A DNA stretch of 10,977 bases, taken from the NCBI GenBank assembly GCA_045580645.1, contig JAZNOG010000072.1:1-10977 (forward strand), written 5' to 3'. The stretch's first letter is position 1. Each line of letters begins with the position of its first letter. The notes beneath the pieces are model-generated. The model had not been told where the DNA came from, did not search any database, and saw only the letters and a program-made list of their open reading frames with translations. The translations under genes and the position numbers were made by a program. This document shows positions 496 through 10,977 of the stretch, piece after piece. The stretch comes from Bacilli bacterium (lineage in GTDB: Bacteria > Bacillota_I > Bacilli_A > RF39 > UBA660).

Positions 496-2112
496 TTATC
501 TTGAACGACCTTTACTAGGGTTATCCATTTCAAAAGAATATAATCTTTCAAGTTGCTCTTCGGTAATATCAATTACTCTACCACCTCTAGGATTTATCCT
601 TGTTCCACCAAATACAATCCAAATTGCATCCATAGGTTTTTCAGGCATACTAGCTTCTCCATCAGTAAAAATAATTTTATTCTCTACTCTTCTTGAAAAA
701 GCACCTACAGCAACATCAAAATCTGTACCGCCTCCACCTTGAAATCTCATATTTTCTATATCTTCTTCAGTTCTTATTTCGTGGAAACCATAAAATTCAG
801 TATCAAAGCAACCTACTTTTACTCTTGAATGTTGAAGAATATTTTTACACTCTCTTAAGAAGTTTTTTAATAATACCTCATTAATTGAACCACTTGTATC
901 TAAAACTATTTCAGTTTCTGGCATAGGTTGTTCTTCTAAATTGGCAGATACAACACCATCTTCAATATAAGCATTTCTATAAGACCAATCAACATCATAT
1001 TTAATTGCTTCTCTTAATACATATCGCCAATCTATTAAAGGTTTTGCCCTACCTATATCAGTAACTGTTCTAATATCTCTATTAGTTGTAGTTCCTGCTT
1101 GTGTCGCTTGTTTAGCAATTGCTTCTTTTAATTCCTCTAGTTCTCTCTTTTTTTCCTCTAGATTTTTCTTAAAAGCATCTTTCTCTCCTAAACCTTCGCA
1201 TTCCTCTTGTTTCTTCTCAACTTCAGTTTTATCTTCTTTTTTTTCTGTTTTATCTTTATTAAATAATTTATCGAATAAACTTTCTTTTTTCTTACCTTTA
1301 CTTTGCTCTTCTTTGTGTTTCTTTACAGCATCTTCCCACATACTATGTGTATCGTGTCCAACATCTTCTTTAGTTTCTTCATGTTCATCTTGCTCTCCAG
1401 ATGTTCCACCTGTAGAACTACCTTTTTCTTGTTGTTCGTTTTGTTCAGATGAACTTCCACCACTTTGTCCACCGGTTTGTTCTTTTTGGTCTGGTTGTTC
1501 TTCACCAGAACTTCCACCACCACTTTGACCGTTTTGTTGTTGACTTTCTTGGTTTTGTGAGTTTTGACTTTGACCATTTTGATTTTGTTCATTTTGGTTT
1601 TCTCCACTACCACCTTGTGATTGTTGTTGTTGTTGAGAACTTTGTTGACCACTTTGTTGTTGAGAATTTTGACCCTGTTGTCCATTTTGTTGTTGTGATT
1701 GATTTCCTTGTTGTTGTTTTTTCTCATCTAATAACTTTTCATATAATTGTTCTGCATCATAATTAATTGCTTCTGCAATATCAACACCACCATCAATCAT
1801 TTTTAATCCATCTCTTTTAAGAAAAGCATTTATTACCGCATCAGTCGCAGTATTCCAAATTTGAGGATCTTTACCTTCACTTCTTAAAATATGATTAAAA
1901 GCAATATGACAAACTTCATGAGCAAACACAAATGTCTGTTGTTCAACACTCAAACTTTCTAAAAAATCTGGGTTATAATATATTGTTTTACCATCTGTAC
2001 CAGCAGTTGGTATTCCTTTATTTTCCTTATAATCAACACTTGCTACTACACTACCGAAAAAAGGATATTTAACAAGCATTTTTCTTTTTAAAGCTGCAAT
2101 ATCATATTTCAT
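496..2112 (-). CDS. putative zinc metallopeptidase (HExxH, DUF2201_N-like) fused to a C-terminal VWA-like domain, with a long disordered linker
   Basis: The N-terminal ~125 aa carry FAHEVCHIAFNH (HEVCH encoded at 1906..1920). The C-terminal ~140 aa carry a MIDAS-like VLDTSGS (DTSGS at 886..900), then GGGGTDF and IIFTDGE, the pattern of the VWA-like DUF2201 family that partners MoxR-type ATPases. A GAGGT RBS lies 7 nt upstream of the ATG at 2112. Confidence 0.85.
   Translation of the reverse strand: MKYDIAALKRKMLVKYPFFGSVVASVDYKENKGIPTAGTDGKTIYYNPDFLESLSVEQQTFVFAHEVCHIAFNHILRSEGKDPQIWNTATDAVINAFLKRDGLKMIDGGVDIAEAINYDAEQLYEKLLDEKKQQQGNQSQQQNGQQGQNSQQQSGQQSSQQQQQSQGGSGENQNEQNQNGQSQNSQNQESQQQNGQSGGGSSGEEQPDQKEQTGGQSGGSSSEQNEQQEKGSSTGGTSGEQDEHEETKEDVGHDTHSMWEDAVKKHKEEQSKGKKKESLFDKLFNKDKTEKKEDKTEVEKKQEECEGLGEKDAFKKNLEEKKRELEELKEAIAKQATQAGTTTNRDIRTVTDIGRAKPLIDWRYVLREAIKYDVDWSYRNAYIEDGVVSANLEEQPMPETEIVLDTSGSINEVLLKNFLRECKNILQHSRVKVGCFDTEFYGFHEIRTEEDIENMRFQGGGGTDFDVAVGAFSRRVENKIIFTDGEASMPEKPMDAIWIVFGGTRINPRGGRVIDITEEQLERLYSFEMDNPSKGRSR
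1378..1719 (-). repeat. low-complexity Q/N/S/G-rich coding tract (CAA/CAG/AAT/GGT-rich) inside the 538-aa gene
   Basis: About aa 132-245 read QQQGNQSQQQNGQQGQNSQQQSGQQSS...GGSSSEQNEQQEKGSSTGGTSGEQ. At the DNA level the tract is an imperfect tt-g-tt-g type microrepeat. This explains why three overlapping ORFs appear open there in other frames. Confidence 0.85.
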
Positions 2113-2121
2113 ACTTTAACC

Positions 2122-2514
2122 TCATATTTGAGCTACTAATGAGTAAATTTCTTCGCTTATTTTATCCTTATTAACTTCTTTTGCAGTAACAATTATTACA
2201 CAATCTTTTGGTAATTCAAAAGTAGATATTTTTCTATACTCTAATAATTCAATAAACTTTAATTGTTCTTCTTTATTAATTGAGTCAATTAAATCAATTA
2301 CTAATACTTTAGAATTATTATTAGTAACTAATTCATTATACCATTTAGGTGGCATATAATCTGCACCATCATAATGACCATTTAATTCTTTTGCATCAAC
2401 ATCTGCTGATATTACTATTGCACCAGGAATATCTTTACCAGAAATAAAATTAACTAATATTGGTGCTACATTTGCTTTAATGTAAGACATTAACAATTCT
2501 TTTTTATTTTCCAT
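2122..2514 (-). CDS. small hypothetical protein, possibly a degenerate (Walker-A-less) AAA-like fragment
   Basis: Its ATG (2514..2512) overlaps the TAA of the upstream gene (2516..2514) as TAATG. Its TGA (2124..2122) lies 9 nt before the next ATG. The segment KVLVIDLIDSINKEEQLKFIELLEYRKISTFELPKDCVIIVTA parallels HIVFLDEITNALPSIQGIAFNIVLDREVNGVWKLPENARIVAAG of the neighbouring ATPase, but there is no GK[ST] P-loop and no DE. Confidence 0.7.
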   Translation of the reverse strand: MENKKELLMSYIKANVAPILVNFISGKDIPGAIVISADVDAKELNGHYDGADYMPPKWYNELVTNNNSKVLVIDLIDSINKEEQLKFIELLEYRKISTFELPKDCVIIVTAKEVNKDKISEEIYSLVAQI

Positions 2515-4406
2515 TATCTTCTTATACCTCCTCCTGGCATATTTGCAAGTTTTGCTTCTGCAATTCTTTCTAGTCTTGATTCATCACCATGTATCCATAG
2601 TGCATCAAAAATTGCACCAAACTCTGCACCTAAACCTGTTACAAAACCTCTAACTTTATCAAGATGTTCTTCTTCTACTTGAGATAATCCCATAGTAGTT
2701 GCATATCTTTCTGCAGTATTTAAATTTTGTATATCTCTGTCAGTATAATTTCCATTTATTACATCATCTAATGTAATTACTTGTTGATTACAGAATTGAA
2801 CGAATTCTCTAGTAATATCTTCTCCAACTAATGCTCTTAACATTTCAGGACTACCTGTTGCATAAAGCATTTTTGAAGCCATTTCCCATTTTCTAGGGTC
2901 TGCATTTGGAGTTTCTCCATTATATTCACTTCTTAATGTTTCGCCTTTCTTATATGCGATATAAGAATAAATTGCAGGATGTATATTATGTTCACTTGCC
3001 CATTTCAACCAACTTTCAGTTGTTGTTTTAATATAAACATGAGCAAGTCTATTAAATAATGGTTCTGCTAATTGGTTTGCAGCAAGAGAGTCTTTCATAT
3101 CATTTCCTGCAGCAACTATTCTTGCATTTTCTGGCAATTTCCAAACACCATTTACTTCTCTATCTAAAACTATATTAAATGCTATACCTTGAATACTTGG
3201 TAATGCATTAGTTATTTCATCTAAAAATACAATATGCATTCTATCAGGTTCTTTTTCGCATTTTTCTTCTATCTTCTTTAACCAGCTAGGTTTTACATCA
3301 ATCATCTCTCCAGTTTCAGAATTATATACACTCTTACCATTTAAACTTTCTGGAGTTGCATTACGAAGATAAATTATTACACAATCAGGGTCTATTTGCT
3401 TTACTCTAGCACTTTTACCTTCTGAAGAAGGTCCGTGTAAGAATACTGCTACACCACTTTCAATTGCACCTTTTATAATTTGTTCTTCACTTACTTGTCC
3501 AAACTTTAATCCATAAGGATTTCTTCTCTTTTCAAGTCTCTTTTGTTCTTCTTCGTATTGTTTCTTTTCTTCTGGTGTCATTTCCTTAACAACACTAGGT
3601 ACCATATCTCTAGCAAAATATGTATTCAAATATTGGTACATTTCAGTATTTTTAAAATCACCATTATATTGTCTATCATTACAAAATCTAATTCCAGAAG
3701 CTAACAAAGTTTTGCTAACTAGCATTTTTGCTCTATCATCAACAATCCATTTTATTGGAGATACTTCCAACCACACATACATTCCAGGATGTACTGTAAC
3801 TCCATTAGATAATTTAAAGTTTTCATCAGTATCATTTGATTTTACTCTTACATAGCGTTTTCCATTATATTCAAATTCTTCATGTTGAACAGGACTAAAT
3901 CTTTCTGAATTTGCATTCCATCTTCTAGAATCTGTAGTATATGTTTTTCCAGTTCTTCTCAACACACCTGCTTGGAATGAATCATCAAGAATTCTACCCA
4001 AATTGGTATCAACTGCATATTGTGGATATTCGCCATACTCAACTTCCAAAAATCCGTGTCTTCCCTTCACTCCGTTCAGGGAGATGTCAGAGATGTTTGA
4101 GAACGGTAAAGCTGGGCGAACGGCACCGGAACGCTTACCAGCAGTCGTACAGCTACGATCACCAACTTTGTTGACACCACGAACGTCCCCATCGCCAGCG
4201 GAAGAAGATAAATACCACCAACCAGTTCTACCTCTCATTGAATTATCTCCATCTACATGATAATCACTAGATACATAAGCACCTAATAATATAGCAAAGT
4301 CGGAAATAGCACACTTTCCTCCCATTTTCTTTATAACATCTATCTGTTGACTTCCAAAAGTTTGTTCATCTGAAAGTAAGGTAAATTCATTATTATTAAA
4401 GTTCAT
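2514..4406 (-). CDS. DGR variable (target) protein: N-terminal VR-bearing ligand-binding-like domain fused to a MoxR/AAA_5-type AAA+ ATPase
   Basis: The track ORF starts at a GTG at 4454. The ATG at 4406 (MNFNNNEF...) has a strong GAGGTGG RBS (4418..4412) 5 nt upstream, so 4406 is preferred. The VR (4112..4208) encodes SSSAGDGDVRGVNKVGDRSCTTAGKRSGAVRP inside a ...GWWYLSS...VRPALPF context. The ATPase core has Walker A GPSSEGKS (3411..3434), Walker B IVFLDE (3216..3233), sensor-1-like IVAAGN and an LFNRL motif. No signal peptide or TM segment is apparent. Confidence 0.85.
   Translation of the reverse strand: MNFNNNEFTLLSDEQTFGSQQIDVIKKMGGKCAISDFAILLGAYVSSDYHVDGDNSMRGRTGWWYLSSSAGDGDVRGVNKVGDRSCTTAGKRSGAVRPALPFSNISDISLNGVKGRHGFLEVEYGEYPQYAVDTNLGRILDDSFQAGVLRRTGKTYTTDSRRWNANSERFSPVQHEEFEYNGKRYVRVKSNDTDENFKLSNGVTVHPGMYVWLEVSPIKWIVDDRAKMLVSKTLLASGIRFCNDRQYNGDFKNTEMYQYLNTYFARDMVPSVVKEMTPEEKKQYEEEQKRLEKRRNPYGLKFGQVSEEQIIKGAIESGVAVFLHGPSSEGKSARVKQIDPDCVIIYLRNATPESLNGKSVYNSETGEMIDVKPSWLKKIEEKCEKEPDRMHIVFLDEITNALPSIQGIAFNIVLDREVNGVWKLPENARIVAAGNDMKDSLAANQLAEPLFNRLAHVYIKTTTESWLKWASEHNIHPAIYSYIAYKKGETLRSEYNGETPNADPRKWEMASKMLYATGSPEMLRALVGEDITREFVQFCNQQVITLDDVINGNYTDRDIQNLNTAERYATTMGLSQVEEEHLDKVRGFVTGLGAEFGAIFDALWIHGDESRLERIAEAKLANMPGGGIRR
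4112..4208 (-). repeat. DGR variable repeat (VR)
   Basis: This 97 bp aligns without gaps to 5728..5824 (offset 1616) with 90/97 identity. Mismatches are at 4144, 4149, 4152, 4153, 4165, 4177 and 4198. At six of them TR has T on the plus strand, which is A on the coding minus strand. The VR is in frame inside the 2514..4406 CDS (codons 67-98 from the ATG at 4406, plus the first base of codon 99). Homology may extend 3 nt further to 4109, which would add one more A-site mismatch (4111 versus 5727). Confidence 0.9.
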
Positions 4407-4495: not shown

Positions 4496-5512
4496 TTATT
4501 GTAAAGGTTTGGTTTTATTTAAAAAACTTAAACTTTCATTAGATTTTTGTACTCTTGAATAAAAAGAATTTTTTCTTATATTTACATATTCTCTATTAAC
4601 AATCCCTTTATTTTCAAGTTTTGATAAAGCTTTTAAATGTTTTTTTATTCTCTTTTTTGATGAACTTCTTAATTTTTTTATAACTTTACCAGTATCAGTT
4701 AATGTTAATCTAAACCCTAAAAAATCTATACCATTTGACACTTTTCCAATTTGAGTTTTGCGATTTAAAGTTAATTTAAGATTATTAACACAAACTTTTT
4801 CTATTTCCTTTAAGCAATATTTTAAATATTCTTTATCTTTATGAATTAATATAAAATCATCCATATATCTTACATATCCCTTAATTTGTAATGTTTCTTT
4901 ACAAAGTCTATCTATTTCATCTAAATATAATAATGCAAACCATTGACTTGATAAATTACCTAATGGAACACCTACAAAAGGATTATCTTTTTCCATAAAG
5001 ATTCTAGCCATATATAACTCATCATCAGACAAACCAATTTTCTTTAATTTGTTTGACAATACTTCAAAATTAATGCTGGGAAAATACTTACTAATATCAC
5101 ATTTTAAATAATAAAATTGATTATTACCATTATTTATGTATTCCCTCTTTAAAAATTTAGTTAATCTATCTAATCCAAAATCTGTCCCCTTAAATTTTTG
5201 ACAAGCAACATTATCATAAATAATATGTTTACTTATTTTTGGTTTTAATACATGGGTACAAAAACACATAAGAACCACTCTATCCTTATATGTTAATGCT
5301 TCAATAAGTCTCTCTTTTGGCTCATACAAAATAAACTTACGATACTTACCGATTTTATATTTTCTTGAATTGATTTGTTTAATAATTTCACTTATATTTT
5401 TTCCTAAATCTAATTCAAATCTTATAACTTCTCCCCTATGTTGTTTTGATTTTCTACATGCTTTATGAGCGGCATATAGATTTTCAAATGTAAATATTTC
5501 ATCTAATTTCAT
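4496..5512 (-). CDS. DGR-type reverse transcriptase
   Basis: RT motifs occur in order: YEPKERLIEALTYKDRVV, DISKYFPSI, VPLGNLSSQWFALLYLDEID (the [I/L]GNxxSQxFA signature typical of DGR RTs), YVRYMDDFILI (YMDD at 4856..4867), LKLTLNRKTQI and IDFLGFRL. The size is 338 aa. An AAGGA RBS lies 7 nt upstream of the ATG at 5512. A TR lies immediately upstream. Confidence 0.92.
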   Translation of the reverse strand: MKLDEIFTFENLYAAHKACRKSKQHRGEVIRFELDLGKNISEIIKQINSRKYKIGKYRKFILYEPKERLIEALTYKDRVVLMCFCTHVLKPKISKHIIYDNVACQKFKGTDFGLDRLTKFLKREYINNGNNQFYYLKCDISKYFPSINFEVLSNKLKKIGLSDDELYMARIFMEKDNPFVGVPLGNLSSQWFALLYLDEIDRLCKETLQIKGYVRYMDDFILIHKDKEYLKYCLKEIEKVCVNNLKLTLNRKTQIGKVSNGIDFLGFRLTLTDTGKVIKKLRSSSKKRIKKHLKALSKLENKGIVNREYVNIRKNSFYSRVQKSNESLSFLNKTKPLQ

Positions 5513-5727
5513 AATTAGTTCCTTTCATAAAAAAATGAACACTTCAATAGTTTTACAAAAATAATATCAATCGTTGCAAAACGTAAGTGTTCGTATTTAT
5601 CTCCCACATTTTAAAATGGTAAGAAAAGAGTAAAATTCCTTCACCTTATGGATTTGATATACTTTACCTAAAATATACTTCACTACCCTGTTTTTTAAAT
5701 TCTTAAAGAATTTCTTCAAAAGTGAAT
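5513..5727 (-). ncRNA. probable spacer (Sp) portion of the DGR RNA between TR and the RT gene
   Basis: This ~215 nt has no ORF and lies directly 3' of TR on the transcribed strand. It contains an 8-bp stem, GAACACUU (5592..5585) with AAGUGUUC (5544..5537), followed by A+U7 and then the RT RBS. The position matches the TR-spacer RNA of characterised DGRs. Confidence 0.45.
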
Positions 5728-5824
5728 CTGGGCGAACGGCACCGGAACGCTTACCAGCATTCGTCCATTTACGATCACCATCTTTGTTGACATCACGAAC
5801 GTCCCCATCGCCATCGGAAGAAGA
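5728..5824 (-). repeat. DGR template repeat (TR)
   Basis: This is the non-coding copy of the 97-bp repeat, lying between the avd-like gene and the RT gene. It has 20 adenines on the minus strand and is ~54% GC in a far more AT-rich background. Read in the VR frame it gives SSSDGDGDVRDVNKDGDRKWTNAGKRSGAVRP. Confidence 0.9.
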
Positions 5825-5878: not shown

Positions 5879-6460
5879 TTAATTTCTGTTTCTCCATCTT
5901 TCGTCATCACTTTTCTTCCAAGCGGCAACTAAATTAATTGCTTCTCCTATTTGTAACGAAATCTGTTTGAATTGTCGCTTTAATATACAATTAGAGTTTT
6001 CAGCGACCATTGATATATATCCAAGCATTTTTAATTTTATAATAGCATCTTTTTGAAATTCTTCTCTTTTCTTTTTATTTTCTACACTATCTATTCTTAT
6101 AAAATTTGCTTGTAATAATAACTCTAATGTTTCTAAACACATATTTTGCATACGATTAACAAATACACCTCTATATTTAGCAGGAGATTTTTCGGTTATT
6201 GCAATAATATATGCTCCTAACTTCTTTACAACAGTAATAACTATTAAATCATTAGAATTAGAAGGTATCTTACTTATTCTTTCTAATTCTTTATCTTCTT
6301 CTACTTGTTGTATTACTTGTTTTTTATTAAACTTTTCATTATTAGCAGTTGCCAAAGCTTGTTTTACTGCTACCTTATCATCAACACTGTTAATACATTC
6401 ATTTACATCATCTATTATTTTTGGTATCTTTAAATTGTTATCTCTACTTACTTGTAACAT
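5879..6460 (-). CDS. avd: Avd-like DGR accessory protein (four-helix-bundle type) with an N-terminal extension
   Basis: It sits immediately upstream of TR. The C-terminal ~125 aa (DLIVITVVKKLGAYIIAITEKSPAKYRGVFVNRMQNMCLETLELLLQAN...LQIGEAINLVAAWKKSDDERWRNRN) resemble Avd / 23S-IVS four-helix-bundle proteins, including the basic C-terminal W-containing tail. The track start at 6469 is a GTG. The ATG at 6460 has a GGGGTG element 6 nt upstream, so it is preferred. Confidence 0.65.
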   Translation of the reverse strand: MLQVSRDNNLKIPKIIDDVNECINSVDDKVAVKQALATANNEKFNKKQVIQQVEEDKELERISKIPSNSNDLIVITVVKKLGAYIIAITEKSPAKYRGVFVNRMQNMCLETLELLLQANFIRIDSVENKKKREEFQKDAIIKLKMLGYISMVAENSNCILKRQFKQISLQIGEAINLVAAWKKSDDERWRNRN

Positions 6461-6487
6461 CAATATCACCCCAACTTTTGGTCTTAT

Positions 6488-6515: not shown

Positions 6516-6731
6516 TTATTTATAGTTTTTTAAATAAGATGAATATTCTCTTAACAATTTAGATATCGTTCTATCGTTAGGTCTTTCTTTTTGTGCCAAT
6601 TCTAAAGCATAACATATTTTTTTTATTTGATACTTTTTTATATTATAGATGTCTAATGTCTGATTAACATTTGAAAAACAAGAACACAATTCTTCTTTAT
6701 TTAAATTTAAATAATTATTATTATCTATCAT
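6516..6731 (-). CDS. small hypothetical protein (71 aa), first gene of the minus-strand string
   Basis: A strong AAGGAGG RBS (6744..6738 region) lies ~7 nt upstream of the ATG at 6731. The product is basic and helical-looking, with no motif I recognise. Confidence 0.6.
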   Translation of the reverse strand: MIDNNNYLNLNKEELCSCFSNVNQTLDIYNIKKYQIKKICYALELAQKERPNDRTISKLLREYSSYLKNYK

Positions 6732-6900: not shown

Positions 6901-7347
6901 ATGAATAAAAATTTAAAAGCATTAAGAGAACACGAAGAATTAACTCAAGAAGAAATTGCTTCTAAGTTAAATATATCTAGACAAAATTATTCTAGATGGG
7001 AAACCAACGAATTATTAATCCCACTTTATCATCTTAATGCATTAGCAAATTTATTTAATACAAGTATGGATTATATTATGGGATTATCTCCCTTAAATAC
7101 TCCTACCAATAATATAAATAATTTAGATTTAACTGAAATTGGTAAAAACATAAAAGAAATACGAGAAGAAAATAACTTATCAATGAGAGAATTAGCCAAA
7201 GTACTTAATACATCTCATTCTACATTATCTTCTTACGAACATGGGAACAATTTAATTATCATAAGTTTTGCTTTTGAAATTGCTTTAAAATATAACATTT
7301 CATTAGACTGGTTATGTAACAGAAGCAATAAAAAATATAGAAAATAA
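6901..7347 (+). CDS. XRE-family transcriptional regulator with two tandem HTH domains
   Basis: There are two HTH_3-like units: LKALREHEELTQEEIASKLNISRQNYSRWETNE...LNALANLFNTSMDYIMG and IGKNIKEIREENNLSMRELAKVLNTSHSTLSSYEHGNN...FEIALKYNISLDWLCN. Confidence 0.85.
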   Translation: MNKNLKALREHEELTQEEIASKLNISRQNYSRWETNELLIPLYHLNALANLFNTSMDYIMGLSPLNTPTNNINNLDLTEIGKNIKEIREENNLSMRELAKVLNTSHSTLSSYEHGNNLIIISFAFEIALKYNISLDWLCNRSNKKYRK

Positions 7348-7353
7348 AATATT

Positions 7354-7389
7354 GGAGAGCCATTTAAAAATTAATGACTCTCCTTTTTT
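7354..7389. terminator. bidirectional terminator between the convergent XRE and hydrolase genes
   Basis: Stem ggagag(cc) at 7354-7361 pairs with (ga)ctctcc at 7376-7383, with one internal mismatch. It is followed by T6 (7384-7389) on the plus strand and by a T-rich run on the minus strand. Confidence 0.55.
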
Positions 7390-8941
7390 AATATTGTGGA
7401 GTTCCATATCCAAAAATAACATTACTACTTAGTGAGTAATCTTTTTGTCTGCAAGTATCATTAGTTGAATTTCCTTCAACTGTATATACTCTTCCATTTT
7501 CTACTTTTTCAACTATTCCTACATGACTAACTGTTCCATCTACTTCCCAATCAAAGAATATAATATCCCCAGATTTAGGTGTATAACTCGATTCTTGCCA
7601 TTGTCCCATTGCTTTAAACCAATTTATACCATTTTGACACCCAGAAAATTTAGGAATAATACCTGCATCTAAATAACCAGATTCATTTGCTACCCAGCTC
7701 ACGAATATAGCACACCATTCTACTCTAGAATTAAAACCATACCAAGACCAGTAAGGTTGCCCACCTACATTACCAACTTGTGATAATGCAATTTGTACCA
7801 TATCAGGACTTCCTACAGGTGTACCAAATATTACTGATGACCACATCATAGAATAGTCATCACTTAATAAATCATTTACTTGTTTTCTTTGCATTGGAGT
7901 GAAGTTATATAAATTCATCATCTCTTCAAGTGATTTACTTGTTATATTAATATATAAAACTTTCTTTGTTAAATTCTCATTTAACTCATTTCCTACTTCA
8001 TATTCAATATCATTTGTTTCTTCTTTTATTTCAAAAGATACATTATTCATATCCCAAAATATTTTCTTTAATTCTGCTTTCTTTGTATCATCTAATGTTA
8101 TTACTTCAGTCTCATTAGTTCCTTTAGATATTTTAGCAGTATATATAGATAATATTTCTTTCCATTCTGCACGATCTGATTCTATTTTAAAATCATCATA
8201 TATATTAGTTTCTTGGATATTAGAAATTTTATCAGACATTTCAGTATTAATCTCTTTAACAACACTACTCATAGTAATTGTTCCAGTATCTTCACTAGAA
8301 AAGAAAATACCAAATATAGAACTACAAAGTAAACCTATTAAACATATAACTATAATCACAATTACTGCTACCCATCCACCAGCAATAATTGCAGAAATCA
8401 ATGCTTTTGTTCCTGCTATAATTGCCTTAACTGCCGAGATAGTTGCCTTAACTGCAACTTTTACACCTTGATATGTTTTTCTAGCAGTTTCTCGTGCTAG
8501 TTTTTGTACTCTTTGAGCATTTTTTATACTTTGCTGTGCAACTTTTTTCGTATTCTTTGCTGTTTTAATAGTAGAGTTCTTTACAACTCTTCCACTTGTT
8601 TTAACTCCTTTAGAAATATTCTTCATATTTCTTTTTTCAGCGAGTTTGCTCTTAATATTTTTAACTTTTATTTTACCTTTTTGTATATTCTGTTTAGTTT
8701 CGATAAAAGCATTTTTACCTTTTTTATTAAGTGGCGATGCACTAACAACTGCAGTTCTCTCTGCATTGTTAATTTTGTTAATTGCATATTCATTAGCATT
8801 AACCTCATTTGATTTATAAGCATTTTCACTTTTAGATTTAATATCAACTAATTTATCTTTTGTCTTTTGAGTAACAATAGTACTTTTATCAAGTGTCTTA
8901 ATTGTCCCCTTAACAACTTCTCTAGTCTTTATATTAGACAT
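7388..8941 (-). CDS. membrane-anchored CHAP/NlpC-P60 peptidoglycan hydrolase of a conjugation apparatus
   Basis: The protein has a Lys-rich N-terminal region and one strong TM segment (ALISAIIAGGWVAVIVIIVICLIGLLCSSIFGIFF). The C-terminal domain carries ...VEWCAIFVSWVANESGY...GDIIFFDW...VSHVGIVEKVENGRVYTVEGNS (CHAP Cys/His pattern). Its ATG lies 2 nt after the VirB4-like stop, with a GGAGA RBS. Confidence 0.85.
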   Translation of the reverse strand: MSNIKTREVVKGTIKTLDKSTIVTQKTKDKLVDIKSKSENAYKSNEVNANEYAINKINNAERTAVVSASPLNKKGKNAFIETKQNIQKGKIKVKNIKSKLAEKRNMKNISKGVKTSGRVVKNSTIKTAKNTKKVAQQSIKNAQRVQKLARETARKTYQGVKVAVKATISAVKAIIAGTKALISAIIAGGWVAVIVIIVICLIGLLCSSIFGIFFSSEDTGTITMSSVVKEINTEMSDKISNIQETNIYDDFKIESDRAEWKEILSIYTAKISKGTNETEVITLDDTKKAELKKIFWDMNNVSFEIKEETNDIEYEVGNELNENLTKKVLYINITSKSLEEMMNLYNFTPMQRKQVNDLLSDDYSMMWSSVIFGTPVGSPDMVQIALSQVGNVGGQPYWSWYGFNSRVEWCAIFVSWVANESGYLDAGIIPKFSGCQNGINWFKAMGQWQESSYTPKSGDIIFFDWEVDGTVSHVGIVEKVENGRVYTVEGNSTNDTCRQKDYSLSSNVIFGYGTPQY

Positions 8942-8943
8942 AA

Positions 8944-10977
8944 TTATTCTCCAGGTTTAGTTGTCATAAGTTTATATAATTTAGTATTTTTAGGAAATCT
9001 ATTAACAAAAGGTACAAGTGAACTACCATATTTAATTAAACCACATCCTGCTTCTGCATTTGTTATATAAGACATTTGCTCATCTGATATATTCAATAAT
9101 CTTCCTAACTCTTGTCTATCACTTGCAGCTTGATTAAGCATTACAATAAACTCACTATTTGATAACATTGTTGAAGCATCTACTGACGATAAAAGGTATT
9201 CCACATTTTGAGTTATTGCAGTTGGATATGCATTTCTCTTTCTGAACTGTCTCCAAGCACTATTAAAGAATGTTGCACTATATTCATTTTCAAATAATAC
9301 ATGAATTTCATCTATAAAAATATGTGTTCTTTTACCTTTTTTATAATTATCTGATACTCTATTTAACATTGCATCAGTAATAACTAATAACCCCATTGTT
9401 TTAAGTTGTTTTCCTAGTTTATAAATATCATAAGATATAATTCTACTATTAGTATCTACATTAGTTTCGTGTGAGAAAACATTTAAAGAACCATTAGTAA
9501 ATAACTCTAATGATAAAGCAAGTTCACTCGCTTCTTTTTCTGGTTGCTTTAATAACATATTTCTTAAATCAACTAATGTTGGTATTTTACCATTTTTATG
9601 ATATTCATCATATACAAGTGCAGTACATCTATCTATAATAGATTTTTCTTTTGGTCCTAATCCTTTTTTATCTAATTGTTCAAATAAAGATAAAATAAAC
9701 TCTGATTTATCAACAACAGGATTGGCACCATCTCCATATCCTTCTGTCATATCCATTGCATTTATATGGTCTTTACTACTTGCTGATATACTAATTACTT
9801 CTCCACCAAGAGCAGAAACTAATGCAGAATATTCACCCTCTGGATCACATATTAAAATATCATCTTCTGTTGATAATGCTAAAAACACAATTAACTCTTT
9901 CGCACTAAATGATTTACCACTACCAGGTACTCCCAATAAAAAAGATGATTGATTTAATAAGTTTGCTTTATTAACCATTATTAAATTATGACTTATAGCA
10001 TTTTCGCCATAATAAATACCACCCTTATCTTGTATTTCTTGAACTCTAAAAGGATGTAATACACCAAGACCTTCAGTAGTTAAAGTTCTTAATATATCAA
10101 CATCTCTAGCTCCAAATGGTAAAGCAGTACTCAATCCAGGATGTTGTTGATACCTCAAAGGTACTATTTGACATAAATGTTTTCTAGCAGTTATTAACAC
10201 ACTTTCAGTATCTGCATCAAGTTTTTCCTTTGTATCTGCTACTATTACAAGTGTTAGATTAGCAAACATCATTCTTTGGTCACGAGTTGTTAAATCATCT
10301 AAAAACTCTTTGCTTTCTTTTCTTTGTTGTTCTAAATCATACGGAACCATAGCAGAATAATTATTATTAGCATTTTGTTTTCTTTGCCATTGTGTAATAT
10401 TTGTTTCTACACCTAATAATCTATTTTCCACCTCTTTAACTGCTTCATCTGTTGGTACTGGTATTACATCAATACTTAACATCATATTGTTATTCATATC
10501 AGTAAGTTCTGCAATAAACGAATCTTTTATAAAACTAGCATATTCTTTTAAAAACAAAACTCTACCAAACTTATCTCCCATTTCAAAATAATCATTTTGA
10601 AAAGACATACCATTAGGACATATATAATCTTTAAAATTATGTCCTTTTTTCATAAGTGTAGATAAATCTAAATTATAATTAACTTCTTCGCCTATTCTAT
10701 AAAAATCGTGAAATACTCTTAATTTTTCTACTGCATTTAATTCAATACATTTACTACCTAACTTTGCAAGATGTGACGATATGTCAGTATATATTCTTCT
10801 AAAATAATTCTTCGCTTCTTCATAATTTTTCTTAAAAACAGATACTGTTAAATATATTTCTCTAACCATACCATTACTACCTATTGCTTTATCTAAAAGC
10901 ATTTGATTATATTCTTCTCTATAAATATCTAATCCATCATCTTTAAATGGTAATAATATTTCTTTTTCAAAATCTTT
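8944..10977 (-). CDS. VirB4-like conjugal transfer ATPase (Gram-positive TcpF / Tn916-Orf16 / CD1110 type), N-terminus outside window
   Basis: Walker A LLGVPGSGKS is encoded at ~9910..9933 and a Walker B-like THIFIDEIH is present. The frame stays open from the track ATG at 10902 up to base 10977 (25 more codons, no stop). Relatives of this family are larger than 652 aa, so the start is probably beyond the window. Confidence 0.88.
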   Translation of the reverse strand, partial: KDFEKEILLPFKDDGLDIYREEYNQMLLDKAIGSNGMVREIYLTVSVFKKNYEEAKNYFRRIYTDISSHLAKLGSKCIELNAVEKLRVFHDFYRIGEEVNYNLDLSTLMKKGHNFKDYICPNGMSFQNDYFEMGDKFGRVLFLKEYASFIKDSFIAELTDMNNNMMLSIDVIPVPTDEAVKEVENRLLGVETNITQWQRKQNANNNYSAMVPYDLEQQRKESKEFLDDLTTRDQRMMFANLTLVIVADTKEKLDADTESVLITARKHLCQIVPLRYQQHPGLSTALPFGARDVDILRTLTTEGLGVLHPFRVQEIQDKGGIYYGENAISHNLIMVNKANLLNQSSFLLGVPGSGKSFSAKELIVFLALSTEDDILICDPEGEYSALVSALGGEVISISASSKDHINAMDMTEGYGDGANPVVDKSEFILSLFEQLDKKGLGPKEKSIIDRCTALVYDEYHKNGKIPTLVDLRNMLLKQPEKEASELALSLELFTNGSLNVFSHETNVDTNSRIISYDIYKLGKQLKTMGLLVITDAMLNRVSDNYKKGKRTHIFIDEIHVLFENEYSATFFNSAWRQFRKRNAYPTAITQNVEYLLSSVDASTMLSNSEFIVMLNQAASDRQELGRLLNISDEQMSYITNAEAGCGLIKYGSSLVPFVNRFPKNTKLYKLMTTKPGE

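Follow-up and report, generated by a model that had tools for sequence, protein, structure and literature searches.

A diversity-generating retroelement with its variable region in the N-terminal domain of a MoxR-class ATPase, paired with a VWA-metallopeptidase on a conjugative element of a gut Bacilli bacterium

The contig JAZNOG010000072.1 of a Bacilli bacterium (assembly GCA_045580645.1), which we analysed over 10,977 nt (GC 28.7%; this whole stretch is hereafter the window), carries a complete diversity-generating retroelement (DGR), consisting of an Avd-like accessory protein, a template repeat (TR) and a reverse transcriptase (RT), upstream of a target gene, and the variation that it generates is visible in nature. 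The target protein, of 630 amino acids, joins a variable N-terminal domain to a MoxR-class AAA+ ATPase, and it is followed by two partner genes, one for a protein of 130 amino acids (p130) and one for a zincin metallopeptidase with a VWA domain (VWA-peptidase). We tentatively propose, at somewhat less than an even chance, that these products form a reprogrammable recognition-and-proteolysis system acting in genetic conflict, a role that could be the defence of the host, or of an integrative and conjugative element (ICE), against phages and rival elements. The minus strand of the window is one long string of genes, and all features given below lie on that strand unless stated otherwise.

The RT (338 amino acids, 4496..5512) is matched by RVT_1 (8.9e-14), phrog_1423 (3.6e-92) and the PADLOC RT model (4e-30), and the motifs YMDD and, of DGR type, LGNLSSQ can be read from its translation. 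Between avd and the RT gene lies the TR (5722..5824), with a GC content of 52% against 28.7% for the window. It is 91% identical over 103 nt to the variable region (VR; 4106..4208), and this pair is the sole long repeat of the window. The Avd-like protein (196 amino acids, 5879..6469), which has an N-terminal extension of ~75 amino acids, matches phrog_3206, 'Avd protein of DGR' (4.2e-13), and falls below the curated cut-offs of Pfam bAvd (3e-4) and NCBIfam DivGenRetAVD (3e-5); Avd and RT occur together in 14 related loci. A hairpin downstream of the VR is not universal among DGRs, and the DNA just 3' of this VR (4030-4125) folds into a hairpin or cruciform no better than its shuffles do (z = 0.27).

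The target gene (2514..4406) has a Shine-Dalgarno sequence, GAGGTGG, 6 nt before the ATG at 4406, and its homologues begin at the same residue. With this start the VR covers codons 67-99 of 630, 14 of which have TR adenines, and the earlier note on this DNA, made from the sequence without database searches, was therefore right in setting the diversified segment within the first ~100 amino acids. VR and TR differ at nine positions, seven of them TR adenines (22 adenines, 21% of the TR; binomial P = 4.8e-4), the two non-adenine mismatches being a G-to-T at codon 86 and a C-to-T near the 3' edge. Twenty-one of the adenines fall within 14 codons (aa 70-99), allowing ~7.7e10 protein variants. The same signature is found in related loci with an intact DGR, where 131 of 138 TR/VR mismatches, pooled over 13 loci, are at TR adenines. 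Moreover, among 37 natural proteins that are 93-99% identical to the target, 4-11 residue types occur at each of twelve positions, all within aa 70-91 (70, 72, 74, 77, 79, 80, 81, 83, 85, 86, 88 and 91), and no more than three at any other position. Within two 90%-identity clusters the VR holds 8 of 28 variable positions (a weak enrichment) and 2 of 18 (none), and the evidence of population variation thus rests on the 37 separate near-identical proteins.

Codon 86 (window 4149) presents a separate observation. Its TR reads TGG and its VR TGT, and this non-adenine difference is common to the window and to a near-identical locus (L001, from the Bacilli metagenome-assembled genome (MAG) GCA_017941985.1), the two VRs otherwise differing. 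The natural variants have C, G, W or Y at residue 86, which adenine mutagenesis of the window TR cannot yield.

Specifically, the target consists of two modules, of which the C-terminal one (aa ~300-630, 2514..3506, with a helical C-terminal region) is the AAA+ ATPase. It has a Walker A motif GPSSEGKS (aa 325-332), a Walker B motif FLDE (aa 394-397), VAAGN with the sensor-1 residue N435 (aa 431-435), and an arginine motif LFNR (aa 450-453). We modelled the full-length target with AlphaFold2 from 29 family members (mean pLDDT 84.5; this model and that of the N-terminal domain were built on alignments of 25-29 sequences only). The top Foldseek matches of the model in the PDB are NorQ (9qhd, 9qh4) and CbbQ (6l1q), with E ~1e-8, TM 0.58-0.67 on the target and a sequence identity of 12-16%, and the NorQ entries include NorQ-NorD VWA complexes. 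In addition, phrog_1297 'ATPase' matches aa 309-596 (1.7e-47). The AAA_5 label of the earlier note fell short (17.7 bits, below the Pfam cut-off of 22), but its MoxR-like assignment stands on the motifs, the folds and the phrog match: the ATPase is a divergent MoxR-class member, assigned by its resemblance to NorQ and CbbQ and by phrog_1297.

Of 86 family copies, 82 retain all four motifs (Walker A, Walker B, sensor-1 and arginine), although one scan pattern adjoined Walker B and biases the count for that motif, Walker A lying outside the pattern. The four exceptions are L011, where FLNEI replaces the Walker B DE, and the loci L077-L079, from which the VWA-peptidase has been lost. The ATPase motor is under selection, and the three copies that have no VWA-peptidase partner (L077-L079) are degenerate in Walker A. 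In more distant members (31-45% identity; alignment A2) the lysine or glycine of Walker A is often missing, in some cases together with the DE of Walker B, which suggests that ATPase-dead versions of the same architecture exist.

The L077-L079 loci (10001-12285) are a chromosomal variant, 71% identical, that lies among rplS, a Zn ABC transporter, rnhB and topA. They keep p130, have GPSSENKF in place of Walker A and carry LLNKFA, and Abi_alpha and zeta-toxin-like genes sit just 3' of them.

The N-terminal domain (N-domain; aa 1-292, 3531..4406) is compact and beta-rich and contains the VR. Modelled alone (AlphaFold2, 292 aa) it gives a mean pLDDT of 90.5 and a pTM of 0.88, and because of this pTM we regard it as a single compact domain of ~290 amino acids, not a 100-aa head with a linker; the view of the diversified segment as an independent 100-aa domain, towards which the earlier note leaned, is thereby ruled out. 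The model has no Foldseek match at E<=0.001 in the PDB or BFVD, although Foldseek aligns sequentially and a circular permutation could hide a relationship. Nor does the target sequence match anything in the PDB; a profile search with the N-domain gave chance-level matches only, and tblastn of the N-domain against phages gave none.

The sole recurring Pfam signal of the N-domain is DUF6273, a lectin-like domain of many gut-phage DGR targets, found in 6 of 25 relatives at E<=0.1 (best E 1e-4). The C-lectin-type domain that the earlier note had wished to see sought in this region is thus hinted at in relatives, but the window target itself reaches 16.3 bits, below the gathering score of 23.5, and its predicted structure has no fold match. 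In its native order the target aligns aa 238-287 to DUF6273 positions 20-68. When ten family members were re-ordered as [aa 205-272]+[aa 5-106], one of the ten aligned over DUF6273 positions 5-170, and three aligned the former N-terminal segment to positions 59-170, 114-170 or 126-169, one of these partial alignments scoring above the gathering score (23.9 bits). Canonical DUF6273 proteins for a comparison of native with permuted profiles were absent from the fetched loci. It is moderately supported, on sub-threshold Pfam matches, that the N-domain represents a DUF6273/C-lectin-like module that has been circularly permuted and has gained a beta subdomain by insertion. If so, the VR would hold its usual structural place despite its position near the N-terminus of the polypeptide. 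One 913-aa member (P0077; L067 357-3095) has an extra region ahead of the N-domain that matches Fib_succ_major, another lectin-type DGR-target domain, at 1.2e-5, below the Pfam cut-off.

Downstream, the stop codon of the target overlaps the start of p130 (2122..2514) in TAATG, as the earlier note had read it, and p130 is coupled translationally to the target. The note's description of p130 as an AAA-like remnant also holds, since the p130 family (59 homologues) aligns by hhalign to the ATPase region of the target family with a probability of 90.5% and E 1.3e-6 over 123 columns. BLASTP finds no match between p130 and the ATPase, the relationship being visible only in the profile-profile comparison. 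The P-loop is deleted and the Walker B glutamate lost, and p130 is a degenerate, inactive paralogue of the AAA+ core.

The ATG of the VWA-peptidase (538 amino acids, 496..2112) follows 9 nt after the p130 stop. The HExxH and VWA protein described in the earlier note is borne out by DUF2201_N (133.1 bits, cut-off 23.2; 1.9e-38) and DUF2201 (54.6 bits, cut-off 26.4; 1.5e-14), and the protein matches phrog_1314 at 4e-70. Its zincin domain (aa 8-190) has the motif HEVCH and its VWA domain (aa 402-516) a DTSGS metal-ion-dependent adhesion site (MIDAS); among homologues HExxH is found in 59 of 65 and DxSGS in 52 of 65. A low-complexity linker rich in Q, S, G, E and K (aa ~126-335, window 1100-1735; ~200 aa) lies between them, and this layout of zincin, linker and VWA parallels that of NorD and CbbO. 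At the DNA level the linker consists of degenerate 30-34-nt repeats (families D1, D3 and D4), and homologues range from 379 to 761 amino acids, a difference that is mostly in the linker.

None of the three proteins has a hydrophobic stretch, the highest Kyte-Doolittle means over 19 residues being 1.28, 1.38 and 0.82. This supports the prediction that all three are cytoplasmic, with no signal peptide or transmembrane (TM) segment, in agreement with the earlier note's reading of the target.

The family is large. A word-indexed search with the target found >3470 homologues, and an exhaustive search found 7895 50%-identity clusters at E<=1e-3 and 677 at E<=1e-30, with many relatives full length at 31-70% identity. 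In a scan of one genome per GTDB species we kept the best 80 of 257 encoding stretches, as 75 loci, almost all of them from gut MAGs of Bacilli (RF39-like, 'Tenericutes', Coprobacillus CAG:605, Clostridium CAG:417) and Clostridia. These loci put the module in no fewer than 75 species-level genomes of unicellular gut Firmicutes with small genomes (down to 1.46 Mb, in L035), and hundreds of gut Firmicute species carry it in all. Neighbourhood counts refer to these 75 loci plus L001 (76), and counts of DGR linkage add L077-L080, so that the locus statistics include five metagenome look-up loci beside the species set. The three genes, which the earlier note had treated as a unit, are co-conserved: the VWA-peptidase lies directly downstream of the target in 72 of 76 loci and p130 is present in 61 of 76, while in a Clostridia subclade without p130 the VWA-peptidase overlaps the target directly. 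The partner genes overlap or sit tightly spaced, and the flanks are unconserved except for Avd and RT.

The survey of these neighbourhoods for RT and TR, which the earlier note had suggested, finds a DGR in part of the family only. Of 50 p130-containing loci with an assessable upstream region, 15 have an intact DGR, nine an RT remnant without a TR and 26 neither, but no DGR was found in any of the 12 assessable loci that lack p130. The DGR is an accessory to the module, and its linkage is kept over a range of target identities from 50% to 100%, with one case on an IMG/VR contig. That contig is the only one in IMG/VR with the fused family, against the 257 stretches in species-representative genomes, and a mainly phage-borne family is thereby ruled out. 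Some DGR-bearing loci have further features nearby. L071 (2300-3928) and L073 (3220-4848) encode, a few kb upstream of the DGR, a 543-aa prepilin-like protein with a lectin-type '...GIGFRPVITIK' end; it was considered as a second DGR target and rejected, as it has no match to the TR of that DGR. In L008, L013 and L036 a second RT-like ORF (292-298 aa) and two 87-aa HTH genes lie ~3 kb upstream of avd.

In the family the head is fast-evolving and the motor nearly fixed: VR segments share a mean pairwise identity of 37%, ATPases one of 83%. Members are patchily distributed, with copy numbers that vary at strain level. Moreover, tandem arrays of target paralogues without a DGR occur in L041, L048, L027, L005, L044 and L035; in the first five of these the ATPases are 96-100% identical and the VR-equivalent segments 32-80%, the extreme being L027 with 32% in that segment and 99% in the ATPase. 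L041 has five full-length copies and one partial copy of the target with two p130/VWA-peptidase sets. These sequences suggest that heads are swapped, or that gene conversion homogenises the motor. In two other loci the copies are alike: L045 (8530-17989) has four target copies beside an intact DGR and L056 (7705-11517) has two, each set ~100% identical, VR included, and these could be very recent duplications or assembly artefacts. Codons 67-99 are GC-rich and adenine-poor (0.18-0.25, against 0.28-0.40 in the rest of the gene) in every group, DGR-less ones included. The segment in DGR-less loci may represent fossil VRs or diversification in trans, but amino-acid composition could equally be the cause.

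Upstream of the DGR the window encodes a CD1110-family VirB4 ATPase (8944-10902; NCBIfam conju_CD1110, 4.9e-270, 898 bits) and a CD1108-like CHAP hydrolase (7388-8941; CHAP 4e-16), both of ICE conjugation, and on the plus strand a double-HTH (Xre-type) regulator (6901..7347; Pfam HTH_3 in two stretches, 1.6e-26). L001 and an 85%-identical locus, L080, share the order TrbL, SSB, PrgI, VirB4, CHAP, then the divergent double-HTH regulator, then Avd, RT, target, p130 and VWA-peptidase, and their elements end with regulators, PemK and two large serine recombinases, which lie outside the window itself. Because VirB4 and CHAP stand upstream and L001 and L080 have the full arrangement, the cassette is a cargo operon of a Tn916/CTn-type conjugative element in a low-GC gut Bacilli bacterium. 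No terminator-like site lies between avd and the VWA-peptidase gene, and one follows the CHAP gene. The first gene of the minus-strand operon is an ORF of 71 amino acids (6516..6731), for which family searches gave no match and which among the compared loci is present elsewhere only in L001. The double-HTH regulator diverges from this ORF at the head of the DGR operon, and it is the regulator, not the ORF, that recurs at several loci, its relatives adjoining the cassette in L001, L016, L032, L033 and L080. The whole window had no match to plasmids or phages by megablast, and an Rfam scan of it found nothing.

How such a cassette could work is suggested by analogy. The ATPase would assemble as a ring, like NorQ and CbbQ, and display the variable heads as substrate-recognition N-domains, while the VWA domain of the partner would dock on the ring with its MIDAS site as adaptor, as in NorD and CbbO. 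Once a head has bound its cognate ligand in the cytoplasm, most likely a protein from a rival mobile element or an invading phage, ATP hydrolysis would remodel the complex, and the zincin domain would then cut either this ligand or a cellular target further downstream. Changing specificities would come from the DGR or, in other genomes, from arrays of paralogues whose heads diverge. Ring, docking and the coupling of capture, remodelling and cleavage, a scheme that the earlier note had also outlined, are plausible by comparison with NorQ/NorD and CbbQ/CbbO and with what AAA+ N-domains generally do. Genetic conflict appears the most likely function because of the large repertoire, the paralogue arrays, the patchy distribution and the presence of some copies on mobile elements.

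A bolder form of this proposal, which we consider doubtful, is that unicellular gut Firmicutes have in this module a programmable intracellular immune receptor-protease which ICEs spread; heads on a MoxR ring, diversified by a DGR or a paralogue array, would capture invader proteins, and the docked zincin-VWA protein would destroy them or use them as a trigger. If it were true, DGR 'antigen sensing' would extend beyond multicellular bacteria, a function would be assigned to the long-unexplained gp24/gp25 module of phage N4, and a variable-domain fold unrepresented in the PDB or BFVD would be involved.

Several points weigh against the genetic-conflict reading. For ring stoichiometry, VWA docking and what p130 does, the proposal relies on analogy, and the label of lectin-like binder is weak at the sequence level because the N-domain has no fold match. 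PADLOC matched no known defence protein in target, p130 or VWA-peptidase, and known defence genes are not consistent neighbours in the related loci. Most family members have no nearby DGR, and the DGR of the window is unusual for a well-tuned one in that TR codons 80, 85 and 91 are AAA or AAG and can mutate to stop codons; DGR templates mostly favour AAY codons, which avoid stops. The MoxR ATPases characterised so far remodel metalloenzymes, and we know of none that delivers substrates to proteases. Finally, the homologous pair of ATPase and VWA-peptidase is one of the core modules in the early region of N4-like and jumbo phages, and for the jumbo-phage pair a role as chaperone or in virion assembly has been proposed (Iyer et al., 2021; PMC7824862).

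This last proposal favours an alternative that we consider unlikely, namely that the cassette is a chaperone or maturation module of mobile elements. In that case the pair would assemble or proteolytically mature ICE complexes, or remodel host factors for establishment, and the DGR would adjust the head, which binds substrates or host factors, to proteins that differ from one new recipient to the next. Homology of the VWA-peptidase to N4 gp25-type proteins extends over both of its domains, with E 6e-31 and 2e-36 to JWAlpha gp36 and nACB1_059; JWAlpha and nACB1 share the order ATPase, small gene, DUF2201, with the genes in this order annotated as N4 gp24 and gp25 homologues; and the ATPase half matches 726 phage records. 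The copies of the window, L001, L080, L016 and L032 also lie within recombinase-bearing elements. However, the surroundings of most members vary, are often clearly chromosomal and contain neither conjugation nor phage genes, the fused family is almost absent from IMG/VR compared with species-representative genomes, and a chaperone with fixed clients has no obvious need for a repertoire of ~1e10 heads or for paralogue arrays.

A cellular housekeeping or regulatory remodeller is, in our estimate, rather more unlikely. It would be a chromosomal MoxR-VWA system that senses or processes variable endogenous or nutritional ligands, for example in regulated proteolysis, with ICEs and DGRs capturing the module only occasionally. 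Many loci do lie among housekeeping genes, such as rplS, trmD, topA and rnhB in L077-L079, the flanks in the family are unconserved, and the 26 of 50 p130-containing and 12 of 12 p130-less assessable loci that lack a DGR would fit this view. However, patchiness, strain-level variation in copy number, paralogue arrays, a divergence focused on one surface segment beside a nearly invariant motor, and a DGR linkage that recurs over targets 50% to 100% identical are patterns typical of conflict genes and not of housekeeping genes, and in L077-L079 the VWA partner is gone and the context of the Walker A lysine has not been kept.

Two further alternatives are highly improbable. As a translocated effector, exported through the type IV secretion system of the ICE or by lysis, the protein would bind recipient or host-surface molecules with its head as classical DGR adhesins do; in the window the conjugation genes for VirB4 and CHAP immediately precede the cassette, and classical DGR targets bind external ligands (PMC5758913), but most family members are outside ICEs, the target has no secretion signal or TM segment, and a 630-aa ATP-dependent motor with two cytoplasmic partners is hard to reconcile with export. 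That the DGR is a decaying passenger, its VR/TR similarity a relic and diversification without effect on function, could draw on the nine related loci with RT remnants and no TR, on the two of nine window mismatches off adenines and on the stop-prone TR, but RT (YMDD), Avd and TR are all intact in the window, near-identical natural variants differ at adenine-bearing codons, and in related loci 10-14 of 10-14 mismatches are adenine-specific.

In this family two routes to diversity, hypermutation and paralogue arrays, converge on one protein segment, and the family ties DGR sensing to the uncharacterised N4 gp24/gp25 module of hundreds of phages. The variable domain, compact and confidently modelled but without a structural neighbour, is a possible new scaffold for massive sequence variation. 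With six genes in ~6 kb, the operon is tractable in a model host. Specialists should be interested in the reversed wiring described below, the link to N4 gp24/gp25, the unicellular hosts, the two diversity routes and the variable domain.

The earlier note knew of no described DGR that feeds an operon of a MoxR ATPase and a DUF2201-type VWA-peptidase. The architecture is new but its category is not, since MoxR-vWA systems with a linked DGR have already been reported, under the names 'VMAP-ternary' systems and 'antigen sensors'. Kaur et al. (2020; PMC7159879) found ~80% of cyanobacterial and gammaproteobacterial VMAP-ternary systems linked to DGRs, with a lectin-fold domain fused to the vWA protein, and in Thiohalocapsa Doré et al. 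(2024; PMC10907252) reported DGR loci associated with MoxR, proposing that the targets are antigen sensors. In the literature, which we covered incompletely, no paper has a variable domain N-terminal on a MoxR ATPase, a DUF2201 partner or a distribution in gut Firmicutes and ICEs.

The likeness to VMAP-ternary systems is close in outline: they too combine a DGR with a vWA protein, a peptidase and a MoxR-type AAA+ ATPase, a cytoplasmic location is likewise predicted for their diversified target, and the proposed logic runs from sensor to ATPase to effector. DGR-diversified cytoplasmic sensors on MoxR-vWA have been proposed as an adaptive-like immunity special to multicellular bacteria; the same logic is met here with other wiring. 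In VMAP-ternary systems the variable FGS/C-lectin domain is C-terminal on the vWA protein or forms a separate target, whereas here it is N-terminal on the ATPase, and the vWA protein has no VR and carries a zincin (DUF2201_N) where VMAP-ternary peptidases are mostly trypsin- or caspase-like. Their MoxR gene stands alone and their third component is VMAP, whereas here the third gene is an AAA+ remnant; p130 is probably not a VMAP protein, since it aligns to the AAA+ core. Their hosts are multicellular cyanobacteria, Chromatiales and actinobacteria, in contrast to the unicellular small-genome gut Firmicutes and ICEs of the present family.

The N4 gp24/gp25-type pair (phrog_1297 and phrog_1314; Schitoviridae and jumbo phages; PMC7824862) is homologous in both the ATPase half and the VWA-peptidase, with ATPase, small gene and VWA-peptidase in the same order and with HExxH and MIDAS conserved. 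However, its ATPases lack the ~290-aa variable N-domain, phage matches beginning at target aa ~300, p130 has no homologue among the small proteins of N4-like phages, and the examples examined have no DGR attached. NorQ/NorD and CbbQ/CbbO, the best structural matches of the ATPase module, likewise have a partner with a C-terminal VWA domain and a MIDAS site, but they activate metalloenzymes (NO reductase and Rubisco) and have neither a hypervariable N-domain nor a peptidase on the VWA partner.

With canonical C-lectin/DUF6273 DGR targets (Mtd, TvpA, tentaclins; PMC10743442, bioRxiv 10.1101/2024.10.15.618418) the target shares a VR that ends in a '..VRP..' strand, with R97 invariant, an aromatic 'WW/YW-x-S' motif ahead of the VR, and DUF6273 as its recurrent Pfam signal. 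Those targets are surface or tail-fibre proteins with a C-terminal VR, whereas the present one is cytoplasmic and enzymatic with its VR at aa 67-99, and compared with canonical DUF6273 its halves would be in swapped order, with an inserted beta subdomain of ~85 aa. Finally, P-loop and STAND NTPase targets (categories b7, b10 and g1 of Wu et al., 2018, PMC5758913; Doré et al., 2024) also unite an NTPase and a diversified domain in one cytoplasmic polypeptide. In the targets of Wu et al. (2018) the NTPase (AAA_16/STAND) is upstream and the VR C-terminal; the present target has the opposite order, and its NTPase is of the MoxR class of AAA+ proteins, predicted to form a ring, and has a VWA partner.

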